DNA of 63,204 bases, filler included, from Octopus bimaculoides (taxonomy: Eukaryota): the NCBI RefSeq assembly GCF_001194135.2. It is 5 parts of 5 records of this genome, joined end to end, with 100 filler letters (N's around TTAATTAATTAA, not from the genome) between each part and the next. Parts side by side here need not be neighbours in the genome. Positions count along the whole stretch, not along the records: positions 1 to 8,269 come from NC_068985.1; positions 8,370 to 16,894 come from NC_068982.1; positions 16,995 to 36,724 come from NC_068983.1; positions 36,825 to 60,720 come from NC_068999.1; positions 60,821 to 63,204 come from NC_069001.1. One strand, 5' to 3'. The notes under the pieces are model-generated. The model did no database searches. It was given only the letters and a program-made list of their open reading frames with translations, and was not told the DNA's origin. This document shows, one piece after another, positions 1,964 to 62,909 of this stretch (the first letter of the stretch is position 1; every line of letters begins with the position of its first letter). The position numbers and the translations under genes are program-made.

Positions 1964-2009
1964 AACACAATGTTTCGGCTGATATACCCTCCAGACTTCT
2001 TCAGGTGTC
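1964..2009 (-). ncRNA. Minimal type I hammerhead ribozyme-like motif (degenerate copy)
   Basis: Minus strand GACAC-CUGAAGA-A-GUCUG(gagggtatat)CAGCC-GAAAC-AUU-GUGUU; stem III should be ACGU, as retained in the inverted arm at 2241-2248. Confidence 0.6.
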
Positions 2010-2059
2010 TTGGAGAAATTTCGAACCTGGGTTCTCATTCCAAAGGTATTCTTCGATGT

Positions 2060-2064
2060 TGTTG

Positions 2065-2137
<73 letters not shown>

Positions 2138-2146
2138 CATTATTAT
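2060..2146. repeat. (TTA)n microsatellite
   Basis: Direct reading; explains poly-I/L/Y ORFs 1829-2226. Confidence 0.95.
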
Positions 2147-2340
2147 TCAGGTCACTGCTTGGAATCGAACTCGGAATCTTGGGGTTAGTAGCCCGTGCTC
2201 TTAACCACTACGCCATTTGCCCGTAGAGGGTATATCAGCCGAAACGTTGTGCTAGCAACAAACAAGATGAGAACAAATATCCGTCAAATGTAAATAATAT
2301 AAATAATGTACATAATTACTTATCTCTTAAATATAGAAAT

Positions 2341-2381
2341 GTTTGTATGTATGTACGTATGTATGTATGTATGTATGTATG

Positions 2382-2420
<39 letters not shown>

Positions 2421-2421
2421 A
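2341..2421. repeat. (TATG)n/(TATC)n compound microsatellite
   Basis: Direct reading. Confidence 0.9.
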
Positions 2422-2545
2422 GTTGAAATTTACTGGAGAACAAAAGACGAAGACAGGTGTATAAACAACAAGCAGGTGTTTTAATTTGACGCTCGGAAAG
2501 GTGAAAAGTCTTTTACGTTTCGAGCCACCGCTCTANNNNNNNNNN

Positions 2546-2587
<42 letters not shown>

Positions 2588-3041
2588 TAAATGCATACAC
2601 CAGTAACTCCACAACCATTCACAATGATGTGCACACATACACCCATGTATGCGTACATTGGTGTAGAGTCTTATACATTCCTTGGTCACACACCTGTTAT
2701 CTCGTCACTAAACAGACTACTCAGGATTTAATTTCAAATCTTTCAACACGCATGCACTGAGCGTTACACACACGCGTGCGCGTGCGTGTGTGCACTGCGT
2801 GTGCATGATGTACTTGTACACATACATACACATATGCACCCGCCACCCACACATACGTACACACATGAATACGTCTATACATATATATATAGGTTTATAT
2901 ATATATATATGTTATATATATTTATATATATATACATGATATATAAACATATATATATATATACATACATATACATATATCTTATATATATGTATGTTAT
3001 ATATATGTATGTGTGTGTATACGTACATACATACATACATA

Positions 3042-3096
<55 letters not shown>

Positions 3097-3885
3097 GTAC
3101 ATACGAAGTATGCTATACATCTTCGTGTGTATGACTCTATTTGCAAAAGCTGAAAATCTGTTTCCGCTTTGTTAAAATAACTAACACGACATAAAAATCC
3201 TATTATTATAAAGGTGTTAATATGAGCAAAAGAAAAAAAGAAATAATAATAATAATAATAATAATGCAAGATTATTTCACAGAAAATATTAGTGGGTTTT
3301 GAAGTAGAATACCTCAGCAGAATTTTATTACCGGAGGCTATAACTACTGAAACGAAGAAACGGATAGAGGTATTTCATAATGTAAAATGATATTTCCTAT
3401 ATCATGGATATCTTATTTTCCATTCCATAAGTAAGAAAGTAAAATGTAATTTTTATGTAATGATGGTATCTTAGATCTAGTTATTTTTTTTTTGACTCAG
3501 CGAGCTAAAGTTCAAATGAGATCGATTTCTAAGAAACTATTTTAAAGTTTTCTGTGTTCGTTTCTATCTGTTAGCTCTCTAAATTTCAATACCTGTAATA
3601 TTAAGTTTTCTATCTTAGCTTCGATTACAATTATCGCTATCGTTCTCCTGTTTTTGTATTAGACGAGGTTTATTGCTTATATAAGAGTTAAAGTATCTAA
3701 AGATGAATATAAGTGTCAAGAAGTACTTCTTGTTTTCTACTTGTTTGATTGTGGAAATAATATGGAATAACCTATATTAGTATTATTGACATTCATCTAG
3801 TAATGGTAGCAAGCTTCTTAGAATATCTGAAAAATGTATTCTGACGTCATAAAAGTATTATAAACTTTCGAGAGAATGTGTTATA

Positions 3886-4521
3886 CAGTAATTCCTCGAC
3901 TATCGCGAGTATTACGTTCCGATACCTCTCACAGAAATAATTAAAATCTTAAAAAATATAAATACTTATCGGCCGCAGAAACCCGCGATATACTAAGGAT
4001 TCCGCGATGTAAATTTATATGTATTATGGAGATGTATTTGTATAGGAAGTGACCTGATCTGAGATCGTGTGCTGAAGCAAAAAAACAATAGCAGCGTCAA
4101 AGGTGCTTATAAACCATTTAAAAACACACAAAAGTGTTAGATTCACTTCAACATTTAAATTTAATTTGTCAAAATATTTTCGTCGCTTTCAGACCGCGAC
4201 CCGTTCACTGACAAAATTCCGTGCTGCATCTGAGAAAGTAACAGTTAGTTCATGATAGATATGTACGTACGTACGTACGTATGTATGTATGTATGTATGT
4301 ATGTATGTATGTATGTATGCGTGTATGTTTGTACGTATGTATGTATGTATGTAATTTACATATATTAATTTACATATATTAAGCCAAAAAAGTCTGCGAC
4401 AGGTGAATAACGATGTACTGAGGGCGTGATAGATGAACCGCGATGTACTTAGTGCGCGATTGGTGAACCTCGATGTACTGAAGGCGCGATAGGTGAACCA
4501 CGATATGGCGAAGGATTACTG
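3886..4521. mobile_element. Tc1/mariner (pogo/Tigger-like) MITE with internal cargo
   Basis: TA-CAGTAATTCCTCGAC left end, GGATTACTG-TA right end (imperfect TIR, TA TSD); same family at 24359-24576. Confidence 0.7.
4165..4216 (-). ncRNA. Hammerhead-like fold with G3-C8 core variant
   Basis: Minus strand UUUGUCA-GUGAACG-G-GUCGC(ggucugaaa)GCGAC-GAAAAUAUU-U-UGACAAA: 7-bp stem I, 5-bp stem II, palindromic AAUAUU stem III. Confidence 0.5.
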
Positions 4522-5959
4522 TAGTTCCTTGTTAGAATAGTAGATACTTAAGCATATAAAGCAATAAATATTAGCATGTAAATTCTGGGTTAGTTTGCAA
4601 AAGCATTTTAGATGTGAAAAACCGAAAGCTGCCCGTACGACATTCGAAGGATTTCTTTGGTTAAACCGTTGAACGGCTGCATGTACAAGGGTTTTTCAAT
4701 TCAACGTTTGCATACCATCATTTATAGCTTTACCTGGTATCAGATCCACTGCTCTCTCAAAAGAACTCTCTCTTGGTATTTATTCCAGTACTTCATGAGC
4801 TGAGTTCAAATTCCGCCGGTGTTATCTTTTCTTTCATAAATAAATAAAAATAGTACCGCTCAACCACCATGTTGGTGATATCGATTATCCTCGTTCTTTT
4901 AAAATCGCTAAGCTTGCAAACAATTAGTTATCGGACGAAGTACTTTGCAATATTGCTGTGTAAAAGACACACCACTGTCAATTATTTGACGAATGTTGCC
5001 GCACATCGGTAACATTCATCTATTTCTAGAAATTGGAGTCATAACCCCGAAATATTGAATACAAGGTAAGTCTACATTAATTCACATAATCGTTTTCTTG
5101 TGATTTACATTGCATTTACTTCGCATTGTTTTGGCCTTACCCACGATCCTTTATACAATATATTCTACACAATGCTTCACAGTAATTATTCCAGGATATT
5201 TGTTTGTTTGTGCATGCAACAAACGTCCACTGCTTAAGTGTAGACTTTCGATTACCGCAGTATAGTCTCCGCAATGATTTCAATTTTTGAGCGGCAGCAT
5301 TTCGTAAAAATTCTGCAAATGAAAATATATTACAATGCATAGAAATTAAAGTACTATAATAGATTTTAACGTTCAACCTAACTGAAGTGTAGAGATCATA
5401 CTTAAACGAAAGACGGATATGAAGCAACGACAGAATCATATGATCAAATCAACTGGGTAAATTTTATGAGGCCTCAGAAAAATTATTTTATATAATGTAA
5501 CCAGTAAGATTTAGAACAAGAAATTGTGAAATATTTATAACCGTAAAGGAACGCTGACAATATATATAAAAGGTACGATCAAACCCAACGTTTTATATCA
5601 ATTTACAGTTGCGAAAATTTAAAGCTTCATAGTAATGTTACAACAGACGCTTGGAGAAGTTAAATGTTTAAACATGGAATATTAAGTGAGAACACAAGAG
5701 AGTTCAGATATTGAAGAAATTTCATACTTTTATTTTTAATACTCTCAAGTTACAGCATTTTCACAAATAATACGAGCTAAATTTGAAGCAGAAAATGTCC
5801 TTTCAAAATATAAATTGTTAATGTTACAACAACACTTGCAGAGCTAAAATCAGATAATTTAAGATTTATTCAACACTTCCATTTCGCGTACTTTTAGCCA
5901 ATTTCCCTATTTCTTTGGTATGTGTTTGTAAGCATATATATATATATATACATGTATAT

Positions 5960-6020
<61 letters not shown>

Positions 6021-6022
<2 letters not shown>

Positions 6023-6420: not shown

Positions 6421-6487
<67 letters not shown>

Positions 6488-6833: not shown

Positions 6834-6943
6834 ATTTAGAGGACATAGTTCCGGGCTTAATCCCACTGCGTGGAACCTTGGGCAAGTATCTTCTACTATA
6901 GCCTCGAGCCGTCCAAAGCCTTGTAAGTAGATTTGGTAGACGG

Positions 6944-6998
<55 letters not shown>

Positions 6999-7335
6999 AG
7001 TTTCCGTCTAGCAAATCCACTCAGAAGGCTTTGGTCGGCTCGAGGCTATAGTAGAACACACGTGGCCAAGGTGCCACGCAGTGGGATTCAGCTCGGTACA
7101 TGTCCTCTAAATATATATATTTATGTATATGTGTGTGTGAGTGTGTGTGTTTCTGTGTTTGTCTCCCCATCATCGCTTGACAACCGATGCTGATGTGTTT
7201 ACGTCCCCATAACTTAGCGGTTCGGTAAATAGACCGATAGAATATGTACTAGACTTACAAGGAATAAGTTCTGGGGTCGATTTGTTCGACTAAAGGCGGT
7301 GTTCCAGCATGGCCGCAGTCAATTTACTGAAACAA
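6834..7335 (+). mobile_element. SINE family A copy with an internal inverted duplication of its 5' half
   Basis: Arms 6834-6946 and 7001-7112 around (TA)n; 3' half of SINE resumes at about 7150. Confidence 0.8.
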
Positions 7336-9942: not shown

Positions 9943-12551
9943 CACTGGTCAACAATTTCTGAAAAATTGTGAGCTTCTTAAATGAGATTAGTTTATTATT
10001 ATGTATTTTTATGCACAGAATCCAAATATCACCTTGTTAAACGCTTATTGGCTATTGATTAAAAGATAAGCGGCATGTAATATTTGATTATTTTATTAGA
10101 ACGTACAGTATGTGTCATTATATGTTTTAAGCTCTAAACCATATTGTTATATGTTCATATCTATGTGAATGCGTAGGTATACGTATATATGAATACATCT
10201 TCACTAGTAGTACTATTTTGTTAAGCGCATCTACTAAGCAGTATGAACTGTGTTTAAGGCAGATACGCACAGCGTGTATCACTCCGCTATAGACACGGTT
10301 TGTAAACATGTCAAATAAAGTAAACACGTAGAAACATAACAATGCCTTCAGTGAGTTGTTTATTATCCCACAAAGAACAAAAGAATACATAACACATATC
10401 TACTCTTCTTTTTTGCTTGACGCTTAAAGTAGGCTGATGAATCATCTCTTGCCAATGTCCAGTAATAGTCTGCAAGCATTGTTGTGTTCCATTTACCCTA
10501 GTACCGCTTTTCCATGGTTGAAATATCTTGGGGAAACCTTTCATAATGTTCGTTACTAACTGTCCTACAGCTCGCCGGAAAATGTCTAAATGTGAGTCCA
10601 AAAAGTGGATTTTAAGTGACATGTTACAATCCATGTCCTTGTAAGCCTTGATGAGTTTTTCCATCAATTCTTTATAGTTCCCTTCCCTTCTGTTGCCGAG
10701 AAATCTCTTCGCCACTAGCTTGAATGGTTCACAAGCAGCTTTCTTCTTCCTGTGAAGGGCTGATTCAAAGTCATCATCTTTAAGAAGCTCTCGAATCTGA
10801 GGATCAATGAAAATTCCCCCTTTTATCTTAGCGTCGCTCAGTGTGGGGAATTTTGATGTTAAATACTTGAATCTCTGACCAAGTTTCTCCATAGCTTTTA
10901 CAAAGTTTTTCATGAGCCTCAGTTTTATGTGTAATAGTGGTAGCAAAATTTTGTTTGGTTCAGTGAGAGGTGGATGTTGAACATTTTTCATCCCAGGCTC
11001 CAATGACTGACGAAGTGGCCAGTCTCTCCTGGTATAGTGGGAACCTCTTGTGCGGTTGTCCCATTCACACAGAAAGCAGCAGTACTTGGTGTATCCACCC
11101 TGCAAGCCCATCACAAAAGCAACAACCTTTAAGTCACCACAGAGCTGCCATTGATGTTCATCATATCTTATGCATTGCAATATATTCATGTGTGGTGCAT
11201 AGTCCACAGGAACTGATGGTTCGCCATTGCCGTTATGCGGCAAGACACCTTTCAGACTCGTTTTGATGAATCTATGAACATCCCCCAGTGTCTGGTGCTT
11301 CCATCAGACCATTAATATTGTTGCAGGTCACTAAATCGCCGTTCATTACGAAGAAATCATTGAACTGCTGCTGACAGTCGCGAAATTTTGAAATTTTCAC
11401 ATCAACTGCTAGGAGATACCACTGTTGAAGACGAGAGTCTAGCAGCTCTGCCTTATTCATGGGTTGTTGTAGATCCCTGACAAGGTCATGGAGTTCCCAT
11501 TGTGTTATGAGATGTGGCCTAGAAAAGTGTGCTTCATCAAAATTTGGGTCACTCTGTAATCTTTTTCTGCTTCCTCATCACCACTTTCCTAATCTGACTC
11601 AAAGGATACCGAAGTTGGTGCATCAGGAACAGGTCGTCCTTTTCTGCTTCCTCCTCACCACTTTCGAAGGATACCGAAGTTGGTGCATCAAGAACAGGTG
11701 GACCTTCTCCATGTAGAACTGGGCGAATAGCTGATGGAATGTTTGGATATTCAATAGACTCCTTTTTTTTCTTTGACAAGCTCTTTTGTACTGCAGAAGT
11801 AACAATTGTCGGTATGGTCTGGTGGCTCCCGCCACGTCATTGTCACAGCAAAAGGTATTATTTTTCTCTTCCTATTCAACCATTGGTGACGGTTAACAGC
11901 ACAAGTGTTGCAGCATATGTGAGGAGCCCAGTTCTTATTCTGGTTACCAATCTTGCATCCAAAATATAGGTGATATGCCTTTCTAACTATAGCAGTTATA
12001 CAGCGCTTCTGTGATGCAAAGGTCGCCCTACCACAAATGTAGCAGAAGTTTTCTGCCTTATTCACACAAGTACGAGGCATCTGAAAGAAGAAAACAACAA
12101 ACAATTAGAAGATAAACAGAAAATTTATTCTTAAATTTATCATTATCACACAAAGCATGACAGCTTAGCAGGATTATTTATATTATTCAGTAAGAGAATG
12201 AAATTAATATAAATGTCTTACATGCATATCAAAAGCTTGCTTGATGAATATTTATTATAAGTTTTAAAAAGTGTTTGACTAGGAAAATCACCTACCTTTC
12301 AACTCAAAGTGTAAACTTGCACAGCACAACCACCTTCTATTACTGCTGGAACGATACTGAAAGGCAGTGAGACTGTGAGTGTGGTAAGAAACACACAGCC
12401 GCAAGCGTGTTGGAACCTGTTGTGACACTTAGGTGTATCTTGAAAAGCGGAGCTAACAAACGAATTTAACCATGATATTCATTATCAGCGACCTAAAATT
12501 TGGTGTAGATTTCTACTCTGGTCTCTGAAGCATATTTGTTGTTGACCAGTG
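9943..12551 (-). mobile_element. Chapaev3-like (CMC superfamily) DNA transposon, full length, decayed transposase
   Basis: 13-bp perfect TIR CACTGGTCAACAA at 9943-9955 and 12539-12551; TAA TSD at 9940-9942 and 12552-12554. Confidence 0.85.
10311..12080 (-). pseudogene. Chapaev3-like transposase pseudogene (several frameshifts/stops, internal duplication about 11561-11704)
   Basis: ORF pieces MPRTCVNKAENFCYICG..WAPHICC..WREPPDHTDNCYFC, YPNIPSAIRPV, KAELLDSRLQQW, GDLKVV..GLQGGYTKYCCFLCEWD, LHIKLRLMKNFVKAM, MSLKIHFLDSHLD; ATG 12080 preceded by an acceptor-like ttcttctttcag. Confidence 0.85.
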
Positions 12552-14068: not shown

Positions 14069-14314
14069 TAAAGAAATTGAAAACCCTCCCACTTTCATTT
14101 ATATGTTAGAACATAAAATACATTAAAAGAAGAGGAATCGGAAGCTAGCCAGTTCTACCAGTAATTCTTTCGTTTATCAATCTCTACGGTATTTGTTTTG
14201 ACTTATCACTTACATATAGACATATATTTATGCTTTATGTGTTGTGTGAAGAACGTATGCGAAGGCATATAAATCCAAAATTGTAAAATAATACTTCAAC
14301 AATCGGTTATAAAC

Positions 14315-16822
14315 ATGGATGAGAGTGCTGTTATGAAAAGACGTATTACGATTCGTGGCATTATAGAGAAAGATACTGTTGAGAATATAAAGAAAGCTTT
14401 CAACCGCCACATCCATTTCACTTTAATGAGAGATAGAAATGTGGCGACCCCAAGAGATTATTATTTTGCTCTGGCGCTGACAATAAAAGACCAGTTGATT
14501 GGGCGTTGGATTCGAACACAGCAATACTATTACGATGTTGATCCAAAACGCGTTTATTATATTTCTATGGAATTTTACATGGGGAAGTTTTTGAAAAATG
14601 CCTTGATTTGTTTGAATAGTCTAGCGAATTATGAAGAAGCGATGAAGCAGTTAAACCTAGATTTGAACAGTTTACTTGAACAAGAAGAAGAAGCAGGTTT
14701 AGGAAATGGTGGTCTTGGAAGATTAGCAGCTTGCTTTTTAGATTCCATGGCTACAGTGGGTATCGCTGGTTATGGATATGGAATTCGGTACAATTATGGT
14801 ATATTTAAACAGTACATGGAAAATGGATGGCAGTGTGAATCAGCCGACGAATGGCTTCTGTACGAAAATCCATGGGAAAAACAAAGACCGGAACACAAAG
14901 TAGATGTAAATTTTGGAGGTCGCGTTGAATTGATTGATGAACGATTTCAGTGGGTTGACACCTACAAAGTAATTGCAACGCCATATGACTACCCAGTTTC
15001 CGGTTTTGCAAATAATAAAGTAAACACACTTAGACTTTGGTCAGCTAAAGCACCACATAATTTCCAATTGCAATTTTTCAATAATGGTGATTATATAAGA
15101 GCTGTTTTAGATAGAAATTCGGCAGAAAATATCTCCTGTGTCCTGTACCCCAATGATGCTTTCTTTGAAGGTCAAGAATTGCGACTCAAGCAAGAGTATT
15201 TCCTAGTAGCAGCAACTTTACATGATGTTATACGAAGATTCAAAGCTGACATTTATGGACGTAGTAAAAAAGGAAAAGCAATGTTTTTTAACCTACCAAA
15301 GAAAGTTGCAATTCAGTTGAATGACACCCATCCTGCATTGGCAATACCAGAGTTAATGAGAATTCTTGTAGATGAAGAATACATTGACTGGGACGCTGCA
15401 TGGAGCATTTCCTGTCAGACATTTGCTTATACAAATCACACATTAATGTCAGAAGCACTTGAACGGTGGCCTGTTACCATATTCGAAACATTACTTCCGA
15501 GACATTTGCAACTTATTTATCATATCAACCATTTACATTTAGAAAAAGTTGCTAGAGAATATCCCAACGATCCTGATCGCATTCGGCGAATGTCCGTATT
15601 CGAGGAATACCCTTATAAGAAAATAAACATGGCGTACCTTTGTATCGTCGGTTCACATGCAGTTAATGGTGTTGCACATCTTCACTCGGAACTGATAAAA
15701 TCAGGTCTTTTCAAAGATTTCTATGAAATGTCACCCGAAAAGTTTCAAAATAAAACAAATGGAATATCCCCAAGACGATGGATTCTCCAGTGTAATACTG
15801 CACTAGCGGATGCACTTGTGGACAAAATTAGTAATCAGTGGGTAACTAATTTATCAAAATTAAGGGAAATTGAATCATTTATTTATGATCAAGACTTTGT
15901 AAGAACTATAATGTCAATAAAACGAGAAAATAAAAGAAGACTCGCCCAGTATATTAAAGATCACTATGACAAAACTATAAATGAAGATTCCTTGTTTGAC
16001 GTTCATGTCAAAAGGATCCATGAATATAAACGCCAATTATTGAACTGTTTGCATGTAATTACCAAATACTGTCGTATTAAATACGAAAAACAAAATGTGG
16101 TGCCTCGAACAGTTATAATTGGAGGTAAAGCAGCACCAGGATATAAAATGGCCAAACTCATAATAAAGTTCATTAACAATGTTTCTCTTGTCATCAACGA
16201 TGATCCTGACATAGGAGATCAACTTAAAGTAATCTTCCTGGAAAATTATTGTGTATCTTTAGCAGAACTAGTAATTCCAGCTGCTGAGCTAAGTCAACAA
16301 ATTTCAACAGCTGGCACAGAAGCTTCGGGAACAGGCAACATGAAATTTATGGCTAACGGGGCTTTAACAATTGGCACACTGGATGGAGCTAATATTGAGA
16401 TGGCAGAAGAAGTAGGGCAAGAAAATATGTTTATTTTTGGACATTGTGTTGATGAAGTAAATAGAATCAAAGAATCAGGATATGATCCATCAGAATATTA
16501 TCATGGATCAGATGAATTGAAAAGAGCATTAGATTTAATCAAAGATGGCTATTTTAGCCCGGAAGACTCTAGCTTGTTTACAGATATATTTAACAATTTG
16601 TTTTATAGCGACGAATATTTACTGTTAGCTGACTTCCAGTCATATATGGAGGCACAGGATCAAGTAGAACAACTTTACAGAAGGCCCGAAGAATGGACCA
16701 GAAAATCAATCCTAAATATTTCTGCTTGTGGGAAATTTTCAAGTGACAGAACAATACGAGAGTACTCCAGAGACATTTGGAATGCAGAACTATCAGAAAC
16801 TCTTCTTCGTCCAAACCTCTAG
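14315..16822 (+). CDS. PYG: Glycogen phosphorylase (GT35), single-exon CDS, 835 aa
   Basis: Uninterrupted ORF with [53 protein letters not shown]-site [34 protein letters not shown]; co-linear with animal phosphorylases end to end. Confidence 0.98.
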
Positions 16823-18265: not shown

Positions 18266-21200
18266 ATTGCCCTTCAAGCCACGTAGCTCGACTCTGCAAA
18301 TCATTCTACAATGATGTCCTTAATTACATGCACAATAGTGATACGGATATTAAGCTCGATCTGACATTTTTTTTCCATTTCCATTCATTTGCAACATTCA
18401 CAATAAGGCGAAAACCTATTAAACTATTTAGGTAAGCGTTCCTAAATATGGTGCGTCAGATATATTTCTAATATAAGATAGAAGTTCTCACAATATGGAA
18501 CGCTAAAAGAAATAACAGTGCAATGACCTAATCTGTTCATATATGTTACGTAATTTTGACGAATTGCTCACAGATATCACATGCAATTATATAATGGAAG
18601 TGCTAATTGTTTATATTTGTAATACAGAATTTCAAAATGAAAAACCCATTGCTCTTCGTTTATACGTCTTGCGGAAGAGGACAATATAAATAAGCATGTG
18701 CTTGATCATCTTCTTTCTCTGCAATTTCCAAATTCAATATAAAATCATGAACTCTTGTCAATGTGCAATGAGTTTCTGATTCATTGATATTTCGCTGCTT
18801 TCAATCTATATTCCTTGAAAACGCTATTATTTTCCATTATACCGAAAGAACACCTTAGGCACTTTTGGAAAATATGATGCCTCTAAAGAAAGAGATAAAC
18901 GATTTGCAGAGGAATAGAGATTTCTTTCAGATTTCAACCATACCTTTAATCTAGGTCTTATAGACACGTCAACATTGATGATTTAGTATGTATACAAGTC
19001 CATATAAACATTGATGCGCATCTAAGAAGTTAAAAACTTGAACAGAAAGATAGGAATATATAAACTTGAATGGCAAGGAATCATATTTATATGATTGCCA
19101 TGTATTATATCCTGATGCAATAGGTAGTTAAATATGCGGGTCACCAAAGTTTAAATACGTCTAGCCCCTGTCTAGTGTTCAAATATTACACTCCTGTTGA
19201 AAATGGTGGCGTAAAAGAAGAGCACTCAAAACCGACATTCCTGTTTGTCAGATTGTTTTCTTTTTTTCTTTTTTGAAGACCACGACTTCGATGTTACAAC
19301 ACCTAGAAACAGTAATGCGATGATACTTTAATTTAAAATATAAGAGTCACATCGAGAAAAGTACTTTGATATCACAGTGTTAATATAAATAAGGAAGCGA
19401 ATGCTAATGGTATTTTTCAACCATTATTCCTAATTTTAACAACCATCACCCTGTTTCAAATAAGAGAATCAACTCCTTAAGTAATGTAAAATCGGGCTGC
19501 AATTATTATAATTCTGACGATGAGAAAAAGTCGATGGCAGAATGAGGATTTTGCACAAACTTGTGAGCTATCTGTTTCTTTCGCAGAGCTAATAATGAAT
19601 AAACAGGATTAAAGATTTTGATTCTTTAGGACAACTTTTGCCGAAATTATGCCGAAATATCATTCGCGTTAGCGAAAATCAGATGTGCTATATAACTTTT
19701 GCAATAACAAACACAAATATGTACAAAATGACATTCAAGAAAGATGAATACATATTTTTATAAAGAAGAATGCTCGCATGTCTTGAAATCAGCACTCACA
19801 ATTATATATATTGCACAGTCCTCTATAAAATTCCAGTAGTGTGTTTGTTGACTTTTTGTGGAATATGATCGTCTAATTAAACTAGCTCACTAAATTAGAG
19901 ATGTTTCAATTTATTAGGGTAAAAATAAAATAGATATCATTTAGTGCAGAAAACCAGTGTATCTTAGTGTTTTAGGCATACTATATTAATATGTATATTT
20001 ATATAAAGAGGTAAAAGTGAATATGCTTTATTTTATCCTCGTGTACGGTACAATAAAAATTGAGCGACATTATGCAGTAATATGAAACGTTAAAATCCAA
20101 ATATTCCATATTAAGATATTACTTCGACTCTTCATGTATAATTTCTATCATTGCTAGAATATTTAATTTGCAGTCTTTTTGTACAGAGAACACATTTTAC
20201 ACTCACCCAAAATGAGAGAAGGAAGGAATAACAGGAAGGCTTTGGGTTATATATAGAGGCGCACATAATTGTAACAAATGAGATACAAATATTGCAATGA
20301 CTTACAAGTTAACTACTATTATTTGAGTGTTACATCATATTCAATACATCTGCAGATGACTTATATGATGTCATGTAAGTTATTTATATGGCATCTCTAA
20401 AGATATTAGAAGTATGAACTACGATAAAGAAATGTAAATGTCTAGAGGATTTCCATGTAAATATAATCAATTTATAGTCATAAGTGGAATTTATAGTGAA
20501 TGGTATGCAATTCTGAGGATCATTACAATACCCATACAAAATATGATAAAGCAAACAGAATTATTGCATGGCAATATCCACTAGATTGATACGGTGTAAT
20601 TCTATTTGACAAGGAAATAAATACTAGTGGTAATCTCGAAGAAGGCAAATATGATAAATGAATGTATGTAATTCATCTAAAACACGATGGTACTTTATTT
20701 GTATAGAGTGCTTACTTAATATGCCCTTACATTCAACGCACTAAGTATTCAATGTTTTTACATTAAATGCCTACTTATAGGGGCGCCACCAATATATTGT
20801 AGAGTTAGTGTGTTCGGTGAAATTTTGTTGCAAATGTTGACTTTAATAATTTTGGCTACATTTTCAATAGGAACGAATAAAGCTCAAGCTTTATTTATTA
20901 TTTCATATCTTGTATGTTTCAAATAACTATTATCTATTTGCTTGGCGTGGATTGATTCTCAGTGGTTATGTCTTTTGCCTGCCTCTTGGACAAATAGGTT
21001 TTATACCAGTAATGCACATGTTGCGATACATTGAGTCATTACAATGCCTCTCTTCTAAAACACAGCAAGCCAATAACTCCCTTAATTATGTTTATAAATG
21101 TATAAGGACTTTTAAATAAGTTCTCCACCGATAATGGTGTTTACATACCGAAGGGCTTGGTAAAAATTATTAATTGTTGATTTATTAATAAATTAATAAA

Positions 21201-21429
21201 TTGATAAACCTTTACCCTTTTAATCGTAATAATTATTCACTCACTGATAGTAAACCGCAAATTTTCTGCGGTATTGCTTGTGACGCACATGGTAATTTCT
21301 TGGGGAGGATATAGTGGACTGGGTGGCCGATGTAGGTTCGGTTATGCTTTCAGGTTGTGCCGATGCATGAAAGTTCACTCGTTCATGCATGCAGAGCTTT
21401 GCTAGCATAGTCGAATTTACTACTAGAAT

Positions 21430-21488
21430 ATCATACCGATGAAGGAAATTGAGTATTATCGCTCATAATCCAGAAACGCGTCTATGAT
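21430..21488 (+). ncRNA. Minimal type I hammerhead-like motif with GUC triplet (degenerate)
   Basis: AUCAUA-CCGAUGA-A-GGAAAUUGAG(uauuaucg)CUCAUAAUCC-A-GAAAC-GC-GUC-UAUGAU: perfect 6-bp stem I, ACGCGU stem III; U4->C. Confidence 0.6.
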
Positions 21489-21690
21489 TAACTTCGAATG
21501 GTTAGTTTTCATTTGTTTTTTCTTCTTGTTTTTGCCTTTGTGAGTTACAAGTAATGCTATCTGTTGGAGTCTCAGGCTTTTTTAGCTGCTATTTCTGAAC
21601 TTCGGTATGCGGTGAAGCAAATGTTTGCTGGTCCCTTAATTATGTTTATAAATATATATATATATANNNNNNNNNNNNNNNNNNNNNNNN

Positions 21691-22522
21691 AAACCGATAC
21701 ACACCAATATTTAAACTTCTATTCTTGTCACCCATCACACATCAAAAAAACATCCCATACAGCATGGCCAGACGCAACTGTGCTATAGTAAGTGACCCTA
21801 TAACGCGTGAAACCAGGCTCAACGAAATGAAAAGCTTCTTTACTATACAACAAATCCCCTTAGGCCTAATTAATGAAGGAATTAAAATGGCGATGGAACT
21901 GAATATCACCCAACTACGGACACCAAAGGAAGAAGTTAATGAAAACACGATTCCGTTCATTAACACATACAGTCCAGGAATAACTAACATATACCACGTC
22001 ATAAAATTGAACTTGCCTATACTCCTTCAAAGCCCTAAGATGAAAACTCTGATTGAAAAAAACACCTTACGGAATAGCAGACGCCAACCAAAAAACCTTA
22101 CAAAACACCTGACAAGAGCAGAATTCAGATCAGAGACTAAACCAGAATTCAAAGTAAAAGAATGTGGTGATAGGAGATGTGGAACGTGTAACAATACCAG
22201 CAACTACAACTACATAGAAAGTGGTTCCCACATAAAATTCAAGAACGGATCTAGTTTTGAAATAAATGCAGATATGAACTGCAAAACACAAAATCTCATA
22301 TACTGCATCACCTGTCCAAACTGTAAAGAAAATTACGTTGGCGAAACGAATAACTCACTCTGTCAACGTGCAAGAATTCACAGGCAACATATCCGACAAG
22401 AATGCGGAGACGGAAAGTTCAAAATCTTTCCCTTTTATAAATGTACACGGGACGATCCACAATACCGAAAGGCTATGGAACTACGCTTCATAAAAAATTT
22501 CTCCCCAAAGTTAAATGTTTGA
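21691..22522 (+). mobile_element. Penelope-like retroelement ORF 3' part (RT thumb, Cys-rich linker, GIY-YIG endonuclease), Neptune-type
   Basis: TDTHQYLNFYSCHPSHIKK/NIPYSMARR thumb (1-nt frameshift in an A run near 21745); CGDRRCGTC linker; NLIYCITCPNCKENYVGET..R..H GIY-YIG; stop at 22520-22522. Confidence 0.85.
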
Positions 22523-23255
22523 AAAAGAAAAAAGAAAAGCAAGGAATATGTTTTGTATGTATATATATGTATATATGTATCATATGATATATATAGTTAT
22601 TTTTACAAATTCGATTTTTCAAATTTACAAATATCATACTAATATACTCTCATCCAGAACTACACCTTACAAAAAATAAATAAATAAATAAATTTATGAC
22701 AGGAATATATTCTAAATAGAACCCAAAGTGTATATAAAAAGAAAGGACAAAGAACATAAAAGGAAATAACTTAAAGCAAAGAAAAAACAGGAATACATTT
22801 TTTGTTTTCTTTATATTCTCTATTTATTATTCTCTANNNNNNNNNNATAGATAGATAGATAGGCAGATAGAGAGATAGATAGATAGACTGATAGTCAGAC
22901 AGATAGAGAGATGGATATGGTAAAGGAGAGAGAGAAGGGCCATTTTATTGAAATATATCTATCTATCTCTCTCTCTGCCTATATATCTATCTATCTGCTT
23001 ATACATCTTCCATTGTCTCCAAAGCCTCACCCCCAAAAAACAAAAAAACAAAACAATGTTCTGTTATAAACAAAACCCCCCAAAACACNNNNNNNNNNAT
23101 CTGCCTGTCTATCTATCTGCTTATACATCTTCCATTGTCTCCAAAGCCTCACCCAAAAAAAAACAAACAAAAAAAACAATGTTCTGTTATAAACAAAACC
23201 CCCCAAAACACCTGTTTTTATATAAATAAGCAAGATCTCTGTATTTTCACAGAAT

Positions 23256-23300
23256 TATATTTGACAAGTTTGAAAGACGAACGAAAGCGCTAAAATATAT
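23256..23300 (+). ncRNA. Hammerhead-like fold with U3-A8 core variant
   Basis: uauau-UUGACAA-GUUUG(aaaga)CGAAC-GAAAGCGCU-A-aaauaua; AGCGCU palindromic stem III; stem I needs a 2-nt bulge. Confidence 0.45.
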
Positions 23301-27240: not shown

Positions 27241-28023
27241 TGATCTGTAAGTTATTAAAATATATACTTATAATATATATCCGTAACCCATTTCAACTTC
27301 TAAAGGCAAATGCACCGCAGTTAAAGGCAAAGAAGATATTCTCTCTTATAGTGAAAAGTGTAAAAGCAACATATTGGCCCAGTATTGCTTCCTCTCGGTT
27401 TCCTAGGCCCAGCGTTTCTACCTCTTTATCGATTATCAATGCGAGGTCCCGACGAAAGATAAACCTGTCCAGAGTTACCTGAGTTCTGTATTTCCCATTG
27501 ACACGGCAAAAAAGCTGAAACCGCTGCGTCTGAGAATCCGTCAGCGGGCGATTCTAGGCAGATATAGTGGTTTTACACATTTTACCATCAGAGAGAATTT
27601 TTTCATCTACGGTAAACTCAGTTAATTTGCCACGGAATTTGAAATGTATCACAAACATATTTTAACAAACCTCAATTTCGCTTATCACCAAACATTGGTT
27701 GATGGTGATACTGTTGCATTTTTTCCGACCTGGTGATCTAATAATGTTCTTGACTGTTTAGTTAACGCTACGTCTTTACAACTGCCCAATGTTAATTCTT
27801 ATCGGTATTTCCCATTGATAATGTCTGAAGAACTAGAAACGTTTCGTCTGGGATTCCGACAGAGGCAACACGTGGCAGATATGGTGTTTTTACACCATTT
27901 TTCAGTAAGAGAGGAACTTTTCTTCACACATACTGCAGTGAATTTGCGTTTATAATTTGAAAAATATCACAAACACAAACTCGCATGCACGCACACGCGC
28001 TTACAACACACACGCACAACACA

Positions 28024-31900: not shown

Positions 31901-32224
31901 ATTTTTTTCAATTTTCTATTTATAATTTTATATATCATCCCTTCTGGATTCCGCTTAACGCTAAGGATAGATTAGAAATTTACAAAGATACAGACGTAAC
32001 ATATGTTAAAAATTATAAATCTATTTGTTTTATCAAAATTAAATAATAAAGATAAGATTTTGTCAATCGTTTGAGACTTTCAGTGAAATAAATAATAATG
32101 AAATAGATATTGTATATTGAGAAAAAGGAGGCAGTCAGAATTTTGGATAATCCTTTGGCAGCTCTTTTATTATTAAAATTTATTATTTTTATTATTATTA
32201 TTATTAGTAATAATATTATTATTG

Positions 32225-32322
32225 TCAGTATTATTATTCAGGTCACTACCTGGAATCGAACTCAGACTCTTGGGGTTAGTAGCCCCATAACCGCTCTTAA
32301 CCACTACGCCATATGCCCGTGG
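32225..32322 (-). mobile_element. tRNA-like head plus (AAT)n of the 1903-2314 family, without the HHR part
   Basis: caggtcactacctggaatcgaactc..ttaaccactacgccatatgcccgt matches 2148-2224. Confidence 0.8.
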
Positions 32323-44261: not shown

Positions 44262-44703
44262 TTACAGCAACTATCTACAGTAAAGCTTGTCTGTCTTTAT
44301 ATTACTGGCATAAAAGACACACAGGCATGTTAGATGCACCTCACCCCAGTTTCAACAACACATATCCAGGAAAAAATTTTTTAGTACATTCAGGAACAAA
44401 ATTAGCTTATGGAAGGTTCAACTTTGCATGTAGGGCCCAAAGTGAGGTATTTTTCTTTTCATTTGTTTTTTATTTTGGAAAATGTGCATCTTATATGCCA
44501 TCATATATGGTATTTCTGCCACATGATGGTGTTTTACCCAATTTATTGTTGCCTAAACATTCGTTTTTCATTTATTTGGAACTATATTTTTCTTTTTCTT
44601 TGCTTTTATTTTAAATATTCTTTGCAGATAATTCAAACTGGGGTGTGGCAAGTCTCGATCAAGACCAGTTAGTCCTAACGGTGCAGGTAGAAATAATAGC
44701 TGC

Positions 44704-47700
44704 ATGGACAAGTCAGTTGACAAACAGCAAGCTGCAAAGAACATGATTCCTCAGTTTCCTGCTGCCAATTCCCAGCAGCGTTCTTCATCATCTTCGATGT
44801 CTTCGGGTGGACGCAACAAAGTTGCTCTGAAGGAATGCCGATCTTTAATGGACTGGATACGCTTATCACGAAGTGGTGAAGACCTTACTGGAATCGGGGG
44901 AAAGGTAATTGATGTCACCCCAGAAGAACTGCGGAAACACAATACTGAGAATGATGCATGGATGGCTATAAGAGGTAAATATTTTTCCTTTAGTTTACCA
45001 TTAATAAATTCCTTTGAAATACTCAACAAAGCTATATAAGTCATGTGTGTTTTCGCCCGTGATTTGATAAGCAGTGCCAAGTTTTACAATTCTGTAAATA
45101 ATAATAATAATAATAATAATATTTTATAAGCTTAAAGCTTATAAGCAATCATTGGTTTTCTTTAATCAAGACATGTTGATTGCTAATGAGTTTTAAGCTC
45201 ATAAAAAATTATCATATAAATCTGTTGTAACGTAATTTGTTATGTACAATAAATAAGATAACCAGACAACAGTAAAAACAACGCAATGGACTAACAAATC
45301 TCTTTACAAACCAACGAACAATATTCCTTGTGAATTGACCAACCGACACCTTCTGACTTCACTGCAAACTAACATGAACTTTACTTGATTCCAAACTCTG
45401 AATCTCACTTGGATTGTTACCATTTATACTTTACTCGGACCAGTCTATCTCTCACAAGGGGGCATCGTGACTCTCATCACAGCAAAATCATACTTGATAA
45501 ATATTGGGTTCAAATTTTGGCACAGGGCTGGCAATTTCCCGAGAGTGGGGTTGTCAGTTCTATTGACCCCCAGTGCTCAACTGGTACTTATTTTGTTGAC
45601 CCCACCCAAAAAGAATAAAAGGCAGAGTCAGCATCAGTGGAATTTGAACTCAGAATGTAAAGATGGACAAAATGTGAGTAAGCATTTTGCCCGGCATGCT
45701 AACAATTCTGCCAGCTCACTGCCTTGTTCATATAATTAATATTGGTCTCAAAATTTTGCACAAGGCCAGCAATTTCGTGGGTGGGGGAGGGGATAATTTG
45801 ACTATATTGATCCCAGTGCTCAACTGGTACTTATTTTATCAACCCCGAAAGGATGAAAGGTAAAATGATGATGATGATGATGCAACTCCATACCCCTTAT
45901 ATTGTGTTCGTATGTAACATTACATACAAGATGAAGGAAACTGGACTTCACTGTGTAAATGGTTTGGCTCATTGTTTGTTTTTTATTTTGATGTTCGCCA
46001 TTTTATGTACATAATACAAAAGATCACTGACATTTATGAATAGTTTATGATTTCTTTCAGGTAGAGTATATAATGTCACACCATATATGGAGTATCATCC
46101 TGGAGGTATTGCTGAGTTAATGCGTGGTGTCGGTAAAGATGGAACCCAGCTGTTTGATGAGGTAAAAACATTTAATTTCTTTTGTCGCTTTAAAAGATTC
46201 AAGCATTTTTGCTTCAACTCTTTAACCCTTTAGCATTTAAACTGGCCATATCCGGCCAAAATATTCTACCTGTTTTGTCTTCAAGCTGGCATTTTTCTCC
46301 ACTAAGTTCTTTAAAAAAATGAACATTAATTCATTTTGTAGTATCTGAGAAAAGTGAATGTTCTTCGTTTCATCTGTGATTCTATTTATTTAGATCCATC
46401 GTTGGGTTAATGTCAATTCTATGCTTGAGAAGTGTTACATTGGACAGTTGAAGAGTGAACAGATCTTTGAAAGTAAGTGTTGTTTTATGCATTTCTTTTA
46501 ATACATAATTTTAGGTGGGTAGGGAGTAGAATAAAGTACCAGGCAAATACTGAATTTCAATATTTCTTATTTGAAACCATTATTGTTATTATTATTATTA
46601 TTATTATTGAGTGAGAGAGCAGTGCATGCCATCAAAGTGACACTGGGGTAGAATATATGAAGCCCAGTATACCCATCATGACTACCCATTTGATAAGGGT
46701 ACACCAGGCACATGCATCACAACCCTGTATATGCAACATGGTGATCTCATAGCAAGATAAACAGTGCTCGACCTTGCAGGTGGGCCTAATTAGAATTTTC
46801 TTCAGGTTGAGTTGCTCATCTCGCTCAAAAGGTCCCTGAATAAGGGACTTTTTAAAGATGTTGAACAAAGATGTTTAAAGATGTTGAGCAAAGATGTTTA
46901 AAGATGTTGAGCAATGTTTAAAGATGTTGAACAAAACACAGATGTTTTCAAAGGTAAATAATCCAAACCCCCAAAGAATTCCTCTCAATACATGGCTATG
47001 ATGCTCCCCCACTACTTCTGCTCGTGATCAGAGATGCACATATCGTCAGCCACGAAGGGACATGCTCAACTGGTTAAGGTCAAACAACTGACAAGCAAAT
47101 CTGTGGTATTGAGCAGAATATTTGCTGTAGTCCATCTTTTTATACCAAGACAAAACAATGTACATGATAACACTTCCATTCAGTTAAGGTCAGAAGCCAT
47201 GAGAGCCACTGCCTGGTACTGCATCAGGGCATTTATTCTTATTTTTGTTACTATTATTATTATTGAGGTTAAGGTGGCGAGCTGGCAGAATTGTCAGCTC
47301 GTTAAGCAAAATGCTTAGCGGTATTTCACCTGCTTTTACATTCTGAGTTTAAATTCCGCCGAGGTCGACTTTGCCCCAGTGTGTTTTGGCTTGGTTTCTA
47401 TGGCTGGATGCCCTTCCTAATGTCAACCACTCTACAGAATATACTGGGTGTCTTTTCTGTACCATCAACATGGATGCCAGGCAGTTCTTACGATTATAAT
47501 GAATAAACATGTCACACAAATTATAATATGTTTCTCTTATTTCCATTTTTCAGAGAAAAATTTCAGTTCAAGACTAAACTTTCCCACTCCTGTGTTACCT
47601 CCAGGTAAAAAAATTATAAATTTTGGTATCAGATTTTTAAAAGTATTTTTAAGAAGGTCTTTCTGTTTTTTTAAAAAAATTTTTTTATTGAGGACAAAGG

Positions 47701-58775: not shown

Positions 58776-59423
58776 TCCAGCATTTTTCATCTTGAACAAA
58801 CAGACACTCTCACTCCGTGTAATTGTTGTTTTTCCTCATTTAACCCCAGTATGGCGTCCATAATTGTTGTAACATGCGTACAGTCGCTCATAAAATACAG
58901 AACAATTACTCCATGTTGACATCAAAATGATGTTCCGAAGACAAAAGAAGGGAGAAGAGAAAAAACACCATTCCAGTGCCAACAATTGTTTTATGAGCAT
59001 AGATTTCATAGGGCTGTAGTCTTTACCAGGGGATGAAGTGGGGTTAGAGGTATTGTAGGCATTGAATTTGCTGCCTGTTACTAAGATAAATCATATTTTC
59101 AGGTTTAATTATATATTTACTAACATCTTAATTGAAAGGCCATTCATAACAGCTTGGTACAAAGTGAGCGAATGCATGCAGTTGCTTCACCTGCTAGAAA
59201 TAGCAGTAAAATCTCACTGAAATCACACCCTACTACCCTAATCGAAGAAAGGACACAGTGAATGATGTAATTCCAGTTACATTACAAATAAAAAAATGGC
59301 AGATGGTGTTGGACTGTCTTTCACCATTGGGTTGTTTAGTCATGTTTGACATATGAGAACAGCATGCAGCAGTTAAAATGATATTCCTTCTGTAAATTTG
59401 CTGTGATTAATCTCATTGTTATA

Positions 59424-59459
<36 letters not shown>

Positions 59460-60089
59460 ACATCGGACTGTTAATAAATATTATAAACAGAATTAATGAT
59501 GTAATATTTTGATTCCAAAATTAAATCCTCAGTTATTTAAGTCTTTCTTTCATATTTGGGTTGGCTAATTATTTTTTTTACATCAAGGCACACAGTGCAC
59601 ATGACTGTGCACTGAGAAGTATGCTTTTCAGCCACATGGTTCTGAGTTCAGTCCCACTGTGTGGCACCTTGGACAAGTGTTTTCCTCTATAGCTCTATTC
59701 TGACCAAGCATTGTGAGTGAATTTGGTAGATTGAAGCTGAAAGAAGCAGGCGGGGCTGCACGGTAAGATAGGTGCTGGCATGCCTGTGTGGTAAGAAGTT
59801 TGCTTCCCAACCACATTGTTCTAGGTTCAGTCCCACTGCATGGTACCTTGGGCAAGTGCCTTCTACTATAGCCTCAGGCCAACCAAAGCCTTGTGAGTGA
59901 ATTTGGTAGAAGAAACTGAAAGAAGCCTGTTGAAATGACTTTCTCAGCTTATCAAACTTTAATGTAGGAAAAATTTACAATCTTCTATGTTAATAAACCA
60001 TTATTGTTCCTGAAGGGTTTTTTTATACCTTCTATGGACAGCTCGAAGCTTACTAACTTCCTACACCTTGATGCTTGGATCTTACCTGT

Positions 60090-60121
<32 letters not shown>

Positions 60122-60422
60122 TGTATGCGTATCCATGAGCATGCATGTGTGTGTATGTGTGTGCAGTTTCATGTACATTTGTCGTAACAAACAAAAGAAA
60201 ATATATGCAACACATAATGTATTAATGTTCAATGTATTTGGCTGAAAATCACCTGAATCATTGCTCTGAGAGATTCAGCAAATGGTTCAAATATTTGTAT
60301 TTGTGCAGAGATATGTATTCAGATAATATATAAATATATATATATGTAAATCATAATGAAGATAATGATGATGATGATGATGATAATGATTATATATCTA
60401 CATATATATATATATATATGTA

Positions 60423-60720
60423 GGTTGCCCCTGGGAGCTCCTCTATGCTGATGACTTTGCCCTAATTACGGAGTCACTATCAGAACTAGAGGAGAAGTTT
60501 CAGGTGTGGAAGCAAGGTCTAGAATTGAAGGGCCTTAGAGTCAACCTAGCTAAAACCAAAATCCTAATAAGTAGGAAGGTAGATAAAACACAAACCCCTT
60601 CAGGTAGATGGCCCTGCTCAGTATGTAGAAAAGGAGTAGGTAGTAACTCTATAAGATGTACCCGGTGCAAGCTATGGACACATAAGAGGTGCAGCAACAT
60701 CAAAGGCAGGTTAACTAGCA
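60423..60720 (+). mobile_element. RTE-clade non-LTR reverse transcriptase fragment with PHD-like Cys/His finger
   Basis: Open frame GCPWELLYADDFALI (YADD at 60444-60455)..GLRVNLAKTK..WPCSVCRKGVGSNSIRCTRCKLWTHKRC; bounded by (TA)n and a gap. Confidence 0.85.
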
Positions 60721-61599
60721 NNNNNNNNNNNNNNNNNNNNNNNNNNNNNNNNNNNNNNNNNNNNTTAATTAATTAANNNNNNNNNNNNNNNNNNNNNNNN
60801 NNNNNNNNNNNNNNNNNNNNATATATATATATATATAATTATTGATTTAGTATATAGATTACCTGCAAAGTCTTATTTCATGGTGGCCACTCGATATAAT
60901 CATTAACGTGAATGAATTCTGTTAAGAATAAATAATAAAATATTTTTGCTCCTGATCGAAATCGCATTTCCTGCAAGCTATTTCGATGAAATATAAAAAT
61001 TTGACTTTATCTGGTGCATAAACACAGATATTTTTATATGGTGGTACGCCTTTGCTTTGTGTGGGTACGTATAAGCACCTGTGATTATGTTTCTCTAAAT
61101 ATTGTGCTGAGGATCGGAAATAAGCTCTTTATATTGCTTTAATCCCAAAAGTGGGCCCATACACATTTTAGTGTGAAGATTTATTTAGTATTTTTAATTT
61201 GCTCGCTTACAACTCGTGTTTTATAGGAGCTACACAGTCGCGTTTTAGCGCCTTTGGCGTCTTCTTTCAGCATGTTGATACCTTTAATATAATTATATAT
61301 GTATACTATTAATTTAGTATATATATATATATATATATANNNNNNNNNNNNNNNNNNNNNNNNNNNNNNNNNNNNNNNNNNNNNNNNNNNNNNNNNNNNN
61401 NNNNNNNNNNNNNNNNNNNNNNNNNNNNNNNNNNNNNNNNNNNNNNNNNNNNNNNNNNTATGATTTATCTCATCTTCATTCAAACTTTCTTTATTATTAT
61501 CCCCTTTCATTCAGCGTCTTTTTTTTTTACCAATCATTCACTATGCTGGACCACTGAACTCAGCACGGACAAACAAGGACAGACAAAGAGATTAAATCG

Positions 61600-61760
61600 A
61601 TCACATCGACTCCAGTGCGTAACTGGTACTTATTTTATCGACCACGAAAGGATGAAAGACAAAGTCAACCTCGGCGGAATTTGAACTCAGAACGTAACGG
61701 CAGACGAAATACCGTTAAGCATTTCGCCCGTTTCTGTTAGCGTTTCTGCCAGCTCGCCTT
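61600..61760 (-). mobile_element. SINE family B (CpG-intact copy)
   Basis: atcgaccacgaaaggatgaaagacaaagtcaacctcggcggaatttgaactcagaacgtaacggcagacg. Confidence 0.85.
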
Positions 61761-62468
61761 CTAGACTGCTTCTAGCTACCAAATTCTGTTCTCCCTACTA
61801 TATTCTACCTAAGTGTACTAATAAGTTCTCTCCTGAGGCACTGCCATTAAGATCTAATCAGAAGCCAGAAGGCTGCAAACCAATCATCCTAACCGTGAAG
61901 CCAATCCCGTTTCCATAATTCAATTAAATAGTTAAAAAAAAAACAAATCTGTCAGTAAAAATTTCAAGTAATAGATTTATGTAAAAAAATACAACAAAAA
62001 TAAGACTCTTTTTTTTTCATATTCCATAAATATTATAAATCATTTTCCCACGAAATTTATGAAGAAAAATAATTCAGAAACTCTTAGTGCTGCGAGATAT
62101 AAATCTATGTAACACAAACCTTACCGTTACTTCAGTGCGCTCCACACAGCAATATAACAAAAATTAAATAAATCATTGGACGCAAGGGGATGTGAAACGT
62201 AGTGTGTATGTATGGCATGGGATATATTGCAATTTCAGCTCTCAACAAACCAAAATATTTGTGAATTTGTTTCAATTCCCCGTTGTAAATACCTAACTTC
62301 TGTTACCTATGCCCACAAGGGATTGCCAAGGATGTCAAAATTTCCTGTCGTAAAATATATATATATAATATAATGGTGCGGATATGTTTATATGTTTATA
62401 CACACACATACATACATACATACATACATATATGTATATGCATATATATATATGTATATGTAGATAAT

Positions 62469-62472
<4 letters not shown>

Positions 62473-62523
<51 letters not shown>
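62473..62523. repeat. (CA)n microsatellite
   Basis: Direct reading. Confidence 0.95.
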
Positions 62524-62534
<11 letters not shown>

Positions 62535-62569
62535 AGTTCCAAGAAACACAAAAAACAATAACAAAAAAA

Positions 62570-62909
62570 CAACAAAGTGAGGACGTGATACGGATAGTGT
62601 TATTGGACGCTCGGGAAAGGAAAGAGAGAGTGTATGACGTTTCGGGCGTAGCTCTTCGTCGGAGAGATGGAAAGTTCGGAGAATGGAAAAACGGAGAAAG
62701 AAGAAAATAGTACCGATGCCTACGAGGTTACATAGTGAAAAGACCGGAAGAGGAGGTGGTGGGGGAAAAGTTCTTTCTAAGACAGGAGAGTGAAAAAGGG
62801 AGGTGAATATCTGTGCGTGCGCGAGAGTCTGCGAGTGCGTGTGTGATAACAGAACGTGTGTGTGCGTATGTATGTGTGTGTGTGTGCATGGTTTGGTGGT
62901 TTATCTGTT

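Follow-up and report, generated by a model that had tools for sequence, protein, structure and literature searches.

Probable minimal hammerhead motifs of unrelated repeat lineages in Octopus bimaculoides, with C-G, U-A and G-C pairs at core positions 3 and 8

The question raised by this stretch of the Octopus bimaculoides genome is whether a few short motifs laid out like minimal type I hammerhead ribozymes, some with a core other than CUGANGA, are remnants of real ribozyme families or products of decay and chance in repetitive DNA. The stretch analysed, called the window throughout, is 63,204 nucleotides (nt) in five joined parts of assembly GCF_001194135.2; it is AT-rich, microsatellite-rich animal DNA and contains 3,174 N. 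The initial annotation had described five folds and one half fold, and had traced them to Penelope-like element (PLE) and retrozyme lineages with three alternative base pairs between positions 3 and 8. The answer we favour, with fair but incomplete confidence, is that the sites are decayed copies of unrelated repeat lineages with minimal type I hammerheads, likely those of PLE pseudo-long terminal repeats (pseudo-LTRs), and that U3-A8 and G3-C8 are true family features. Thus the earlier claim that several different repeats gave rise to minimal type I hammerheads of PLE type is upheld, and its view of the U-A and G-C cores as genuine and not decayed gains support from two sources: the G3-C8 family of site B has A at position 9, and the relatives of site D switch between C-G and U-A.

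Hammerhead motifs in the window

The letters were as described at all six places, though only four folds are complete, E having no stem I.

Site A, 1964-2009, minus strand: minimal type I hammerhead motif, core CUGAAGA (C3-G8), extra A, stem I of 5 bp, stem II with 4 of 5 pairs, stem III ACAU, U17, predicted cut after 1969
Site B, 4165-4216, minus strand: minimal type I hammerhead motif, core GUGAACG (G3 at 4208, C8 at 4203), extra G, stem I of 7 bp, stem II of 5 bp, stem III AAUAUU, predicted cut after U17 (4172)
Site C, 21430-21488, plus strand: minimal hammerhead motif, core CCGAUGA (U4C), extra A, stem I of 6 bp, stem II interrupted, with an A opposite G10.1, stem III ACGCGU, C17 at 21482
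Site D, 23256-23300, plus strand: minimal hammerhead motif, core UUGACAA (23261-23267, U3-A8), no extra base, stem I with 4 of 5 pairs, stem II of 5 bp, stem III AGCGCU, A17 at 23292
Site E, 62636-62662, minus strand: partial motif, core CCGACGA (U4C), extra A, weak stem II with 3 of 4 pairs, stem III ACGU, C17
Half site, 2514-2535, minus strand: perfect 4-bp stem II, GAAA, ACGU and A17, core lost in an N gap

A Watson-Crick 3-8 pair is found at all cores (C-G in A, C and E; U-A in D; G-C in B), and the conserved core (U4, G5, A6, A9, G12, A13, A14, A15.1, U16.1 and H17) is complete in A, D and the B family, whereas C and E deviate from it by U4C and the window copy of B by G9. The U-A and G-C readings of the initial annotation therefore stand for D and B, while CUGANGA is literal in A only. 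Stems I and II close the junction in B (7 and 5 bp) and, with one mismatch each, in A and D. Stem III, which had been described as always palindromic, is so in B, C, D, E and the half site; it is broken in A, although intact in a sister copy of A. Every copy departs from an ideal hammerhead, in line with the damaging substitutions noted earlier: the palindrome is broken and one stem II pair mismatched in A, position 9 is G in B, one stem I pair is mismatched in D, and U4C, which may be copy damage or a family trait, is combined with an interrupted stem II in C and with the loss of stem I in E. A further candidate near 27846 was inspected and dropped.

Could such motifs arise by chance? Chance rates per window were taken from 1350 local dinucleotide shuffles of the window, each site being sought with its own descriptor; as these descriptors were fitted to the sites afterwards, the rates are optimistic. 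In this comparison, of a kind that the initial annotation had named beforehand, B exceeds chance, with 0 matches of equal quality in 1350 shuffled windows; the rates per window are 0.003 for D, 0.032 for A and 0.046 for C, and that of E, 2.0, is chance level when taken alone. It is very improbable that the set mostly reflects pattern-seeking in AT-rich repeats, even if that would fit the rate of E, the 0.7 and 11 matches per window of a loose and a very loose descriptor, the weak single-strand folding z-scores of the sites (-1.9 to +1.4) and the lack of a hammerhead family among the 142 matches of an Rfam scan of the window (E up to 5). A strict hammerhead descriptor recovered none of the sites. 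For B and D this explanation is refuted by their shuffle rates, by the B family, which restores the missing core base, and by the recurrence of the D-type motif, with compensatory changes, behind related open reading frames (ORFs).

Kinship was assessed for 15 site pairs with their flanks, each against 200 shuffles. Only E and the half site beat all 200 (score 82; shuffled maxima 63-69), while the B-D and C-E scores were equalled by 4 of the 200. E and the half site thus form one family, with the core visible in one copy only, and judged by such likeness the sites are five repeat lineages. The stems are largely unrelated, as had been stated, save for this one pair. The covariation of positions 3 and 8 that had been read from the sites does not hold within the window, which itself shows none, because each of the three 3-8 pairs comes from families unrelated to those of the others.

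The repeat family around site B

Whether G3-C8 belongs to one damaged copy or to a family can be asked of the repeat in which B lies.

B-carrying repeat copy, 4020-4257, minus strand: (TACA)n microsatellite at the 4257 end, truncated near 4020

Four of 24 sequencing runs were aligned to 3990-4258 at 80% likeness, which yielded DNA contigs of organism A (5,753) and organism B (11,435), raw RNA reads of organism A (1,786) and, for organism B, 389 contigs of a run that is probably RNA. Sequencing runs were used for site B, whereas A, C and E were studied from their window copies. Summed contig depth, which is no copy number, was approximately 1.1 and 1.7 million over the B core against 147-314 in the flank, and the family is clearly high-copy and present in two organisms. 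Position 9 (4202) is A in 889,724 of 894,366 (99.5%) and 1,331,815 of 1,342,280 (99.2%) of the DNA contig depth, in 725 of 761 RNA reads from organism A and in 4,119 of 4,229 in the probable RNA run of organism B. Given A at this position in about 99% of DNA depth, G9 is damage private to the window copy, and the family has a G3-C8 hammerhead with the core GUGAACA.

The best 40 of 100 variant rows hold no variant at positions 3-8, in the 5' strand of stem II or in the palindrome. Common stem changes keep pairing, from U-A to U-G at 4169 (43% and 28%) and from G-C to G-U at 4185, a CpG site (about 6%), and the frequent differences in the listed rows otherwise affect loop II and flanking positions (4135, 4159, 4190, 4192, 4217 and 4220). 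G12, another CpG site, is altered in 2.6% and 0.4% of DNA depth and in 14-20% of RNA reads; this far higher rate in RNA suggests that many of the transcribed copies are old.

Does the family still cut? Several results count against it, or against so uniform a picture of the family. The 80% likeness filter favours B-like copies, and the variants are known from those best 40 of 100 rows. The RNA ends and circular junctions that the initial annotation had proposed to look for did not appear at B: no ends pile up at the predicted cut site (one run, X21, about 6% read) and there is no joint among 15 of 49 joint rows for the repeat. RNA reads of the repeat are about equal in both directions. RNA containing the B repeat exists, and the reads do not demonstrate cleavage. 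We take PMC11167929, a study of a PLE hammerhead, to be the work of Frangieh et al. (2024).

It is conceivable, but in our view rather unlikely, that the sites are true hammerhead descendants of which the G3-C8 family no longer cuts, having spread as a passenger of PLE proteins that copy RNA whether cleaved or not. This would agree with the missing pile-up in X21 and with the available part of PMC11167929, in which hammerhead mutants left PLE insertion in vitro unchanged, no RNA-seq ends were found at the cut site and rescue by C3G/G8C was partial; Naiad PLEs, moreover, spread without canonical hammerheads (PMC8557442). On the other hand, the placing of the listed frequent differences in loop II and flanks, with the one in a stem (4169) keeping its pair, suggests selection in the parental elements, though on small numbers, and a pair-keeping double change at 3-8 would be improbable without selection.

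We give still less credit to the idea that B copies stem not from a PLE pseudo-LTR but from a non-LTR retrozyme, or a satellite-like element, that makes circular RNA. In its favour, B has no linked ORF, its covered unit of approximately 240 nt is within the metazoan retrozyme range of 170-400 nt, and animal retrozymes are derived from PLE pseudo-LTRs in the available part of a 2026 preprint (bioRxiv 10.64898/2026.07.22.740005), so that the boundary between retrozymes and PLEs is soft. Against it, B shares two traits with PLE minimal motifs, the additional nucleotide and a stem III without a loop; no tandem B copy is present within the window, and the same 15 of 49 joint rows hold no RNA back-joint. 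Nor were retrozyme-type tandem arrays seen in the window, for which the initial annotation had named retrozyme lineages.

Scans for G3-C8 motifs elsewhere returned 37 viral loci and then 90 prokaryote and 2 viral loci, with no full hammerhead; by blastn, none of the 92 later loci resembles the B repeat, and these matches are read as chance.

The B repeat and its microsatellite lie inside a larger element at 3884-4523, between 15-nt inverted repeats (3884-3898 and 4509-4523). These terminal inverted repeats start TACAGTAA, and the element also has an internal 30-nt tandem repeat; it resembles what we take to be a miniature inverted-repeat transposable element of Tc1/pogo type.

Site D and the relatives of a Penelope-like element

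For D, a link to a protein-coding element could be followed up.

PLE ORF 3' fragment, 21692-22522, plus strand: end of the reverse transcriptase (RT) region, C-x4-C-x2-C linker and GIY-YIG endonuclease (E 3e-6)

Sixteen longer relatives of this ORF share 32-54% identity with it, most of them with RT domains, and the closest named relatives of its protein are from bivalve molluscs. C158, C163 and C166 are invariant in an alignment (A1) of the ORF and its relatives. In Neptune and Nematis PLEs, the C-terminal GIY-YIG domain is preceded by a Zn-finger-like linker, C-x(2-5)-C-x2-C (PMC8557442); the window ORF shares this linker type, by which it is provisionally classed with them. Compared with its relatives, the ORF has a deletion or frameshift at 21743-21749 and an in-frame 13-residue gap at about 22390 in the endonuclease region, and by its sequence it is a dead copy. 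When four full-length relatives were searched against the window by tblastn, no piece of a PLE ORF besides 21692-22522 was found.

A metagenome scan provided 16 loci carrying relatives of the ORF, and the 4,205 nt 3' of these ORFs were searched with a pattern that makes no demand on pairing. It gave 14 matches, of which 10, in 10 loci, have both a Watson-Crick 3-8 pair (7 C3-G8, 3 U3-A8) and a 6-nt palindrome. Both features together were found in none of 3 control matches on the antisense strand and none of 19 in 12,602 nt of ORF. A sense hammerhead thus stands 3' of the RT/GIY-YIG ORF in 10-11 of the 16 relatives. Most of these motifs are without the extra base, as is D, and that of locus L041 is a U3-A8 motif with AGCGCU-A like D. 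At L043:1772-1802 the PLE-associated motif has a U3-G8 wobble and a perfect ACUAGU palindrome; this core might represent a transitional state between the C-G and U-A pairs.

A tree of 15 rows (L052 and L053 omitted as short matches) groups L038, with a C-G core, and L041, with U-A, as sisters (97/88) and puts the window ORF next to this pair (96/92). U-A cores occur elsewhere in the tree as well (L047 and L051), so the C-G/U-A switch is found among relatives of the very PLE that lies beside D. The sister families L038 and L041 form a natural pair for testing selection on PLE hammerhead cleavage.

A covariance model, R2, was built from 10 locus motifs, with L048 left out and all sequence from the window excluded. 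Its best match in the window is D (21 bits, E 0.037); with E up to 3 it finds none of A, B, C and E, as is to be expected of a model lacking the extra nucleotide. It replaces an earlier model, R1, whose match at D (E 1.8e-5) was circular since R1 contained D. Pair counts on alignment A3 gave 90.5% paired, a value reached in 0 of 500 shuffles; A3 consists of D and eight locus motifs that had been picked for pairing, and we therefore rely on the unconstrained test.

Taken together, these results make D a likely 3' pseudo-LTR ribozyme, by sequence, of a PLE of the adjacent clade, although other observations weigh on the opposite side. No motif was found in 5 of the 16 loci (two with less than 100 nt of 3' sequence), and none of the 11 related-locus motifs has a G3-C8 core. 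D lies 739 nt behind the stop codon as against 75-285 nt in relatives (146 in L051), and two gaps, a microsatellite and a 100-nt duplication lie between. In view of this distance, the gaps and the duplicated stretch, D may belong to the window PLE copy or to another copy of the same clade. No ORF linked to the A, B, C or E families was found in the window, and the proposed PLE link consequently applies to D, through the ORF at 21692-22522 and its relatives, and is without an ORF for the other four.

In viral contigs, the pattern of the PLE relatives gave 30 matches, none of them confirmed. By eye, a TATA-like box is present approximately 30-50 nt before the core in D (23220-23255) and in L043, L045 and L051 (3 of 11 related loci); it may mark a pseudo-LTR promoter.

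Proposed mechanism, other repeats and known systems

Under the favoured reading of decayed, PLE-type minimal hammerheads, two motifs of a tandem transcript of the parent element would join by way of their palindromic stem III, make the Watson-Crick contact between positions 3 and 8 and be cut after position 17, likely helped by the element's protein. Such cutting would trim the element RNA from longer tandem or read-through transcripts. The 3-8 pair would drift by compensatory change, and any Watson-Crick pair is expected to be tolerated there at some cost in rate, because the chemistry uses the 2'-OH of position 8 and the base of G12; in hammerhead cleavage, G12 serves as the base and the 2'-OH of residue 8 as the acid (PMC6155905). 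According to the accessible parts of two studies, minimal type I motifs form no stem III alone, two copies per transcript pairing via the palindrome and cleaving weakly (PMC4209133), and a PLE hammerhead that depends on its protein is in part rescued by C3G/G8C (PMC11167929). It is for the parent elements that we infer dimer formation and cleavage, as we do a PLE origin for A, B, C and E; the window copies, single and each damaged, are likely inactive. Co-folding of two D copies gave both stem II hairpins and pairing through the palindrome. For dimers of A, B and C, co-folding favoured alternative pairings over the hammerhead dimer, which speaks against this scheme, and folding energies alone thus give no support for a dimer.

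Sites A and C lie in or beside recognisable repeat units.

A-repeat sister copy, 2226-2322, plus strand: inverted, 5'-truncated, 97 nt, 91% alike to 1895-1991
C-bearing unit, 21078-21658, plus strand: 554 nt between 27-nt direct repeats, with (TA)n at the end

The inverted sister copy, 234 nt from A, retains GAAACGUU and ACGU; its core is gone, the truncation falling inside stem II. Opposite-strand hammerhead pairs and inverted 5'-truncated copies are known from PLEs (PMC8557442 and the available part of PMC4209133), and A with its inverted, truncated partner shows an arrangement like theirs. Between the two sits one of two copies, 85% alike, of a tRNA-like short interspersed element beside (TAA)n (2050-2224 and 32167-32320), in which ARAGORN called no tRNA. 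Site C was considered as a pseudo-LTR of the ORF at 21692 and rejected as less likely: C ends in (TA)n before a gap, its extra base is absent from the clade, and the DNA behind the ORF showed no similarity to it. A scan of viral contigs with the E-family pattern gave no match.

Elsewhere in the window, an uninterrupted frame of 849 codons at 14273-16822 (plus strand) matches glycogen/carbohydrate phosphorylase (PF00343, 1069 bits); as an intronless copy in an intron-rich genome, it suggests an intact retrogene. Broken frames of 330 and 117 aa at 10311-12104 (minus strand) probably derive from a DNA-transposon protein, with no Pfam match at E 0.01. Two inverted repeat copies around a (TA)n tract at 6857-7090 form a long hairpin that gives spurious Rfam microRNA matches. 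An exon at 44632-45039 (plus strand) holds the start of a cytochrome b5-like domain, and 60390-60719 (plus strand) carries an RT fragment of a long interspersed nuclear element with a PHD-like finger.

How much of this is new? Layout, extra nucleotide, palindromic stem III, dimer-type action and U3-A8 have already been published, and the system is a known one. What is probably unreported is G3-C8 as the core of a natural family, which is well supported as sequence and has its catalysis predicted. No natural G3-C8 hammerhead was found in a literature search of mostly open papers, although the alignments of Lunse et al. (2017) may already include examples, and no report joining hammerhead, octopus and Penelope was found. 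Going by the title of that 2017 study, small PLE-tied hammerhead variants reportedly cleave as dimers. We only tentatively entertain the further claim that a high-copy animal repeat with a natural G3-C8 hammerhead still cuts as a dimer and is the first such natural family to be described. If it is true, a single genome contains three kinds of Watson-Crick 3-8 pair, one of them in a family invisible to searches anchored on CUGANGA or YUGA; censuses anchored on CUGANGA undercount hammerheads. A third natural pair type would lend support to the pairing of positions 3 and 8 in the active hammerhead structure, and the family that carries it is numerous enough for cleavage assays and for studies of selection. 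Because the engineered swap is known to work partly, this would be a neat confirmation for specialists and no surprise.

Among known systems, the closest are the minimal hammerheads that Cervera and de la Peña (2014) described in PLE pseudo-LTRs, with an extra nucleotide between 9 and 10.1, a G10.1-C11.1 pair and a palindromic stem III; the available part of their paper (PMC4209133) reports many unrelated families per genome, mostly as single copies, with opposite-strand pairs 100-700 bp apart, and approximately 1,300 matches to a U3-A8 variant in S. mansoni. The window sites share this layout in their type I form, extra nucleotide, palindrome and U3-A8 variant, whereas the D clade differs in having no extra nucleotide and a 6-nt palindrome. 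Of the 56 representatives in Fig. S3 of that paper, 53 start with CUGA and 3 with UUGA, and none is G3-C8. Natural U3-A8 covariation was also described by Perreault et al. (2011), with U4C as a weakened natural variant (PMC3088659, available text); C and E share U4C with that variant, and G3-C8 is unnamed in the same text. Non-LTR retrozymes are short non-coding repeats with type I hammerheads, mostly of canonical motif, in tandem arrays and with circular RNA (accessible parts of PMC7229834 and bioRxiv 10.64898/2026.07.22.740005). The window repeats resemble them as short hammerhead repeats and differ in showing no tandem array in the window and no RNA back-joint in the 15 of 49 rows. An engineered G3-C8 variant is mentioned in PMC3884650, and in the available part of PMC11167929 cleavage was partly restored in laboratory-made C3G/G8C hammerheads, including the PAc PLE ribozyme (Anolis Poseidon). 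Site B has the same reversed 3-8 pair as these ribozymes, engineered there and here the consensus of a natural high-copy family known from its sequence.

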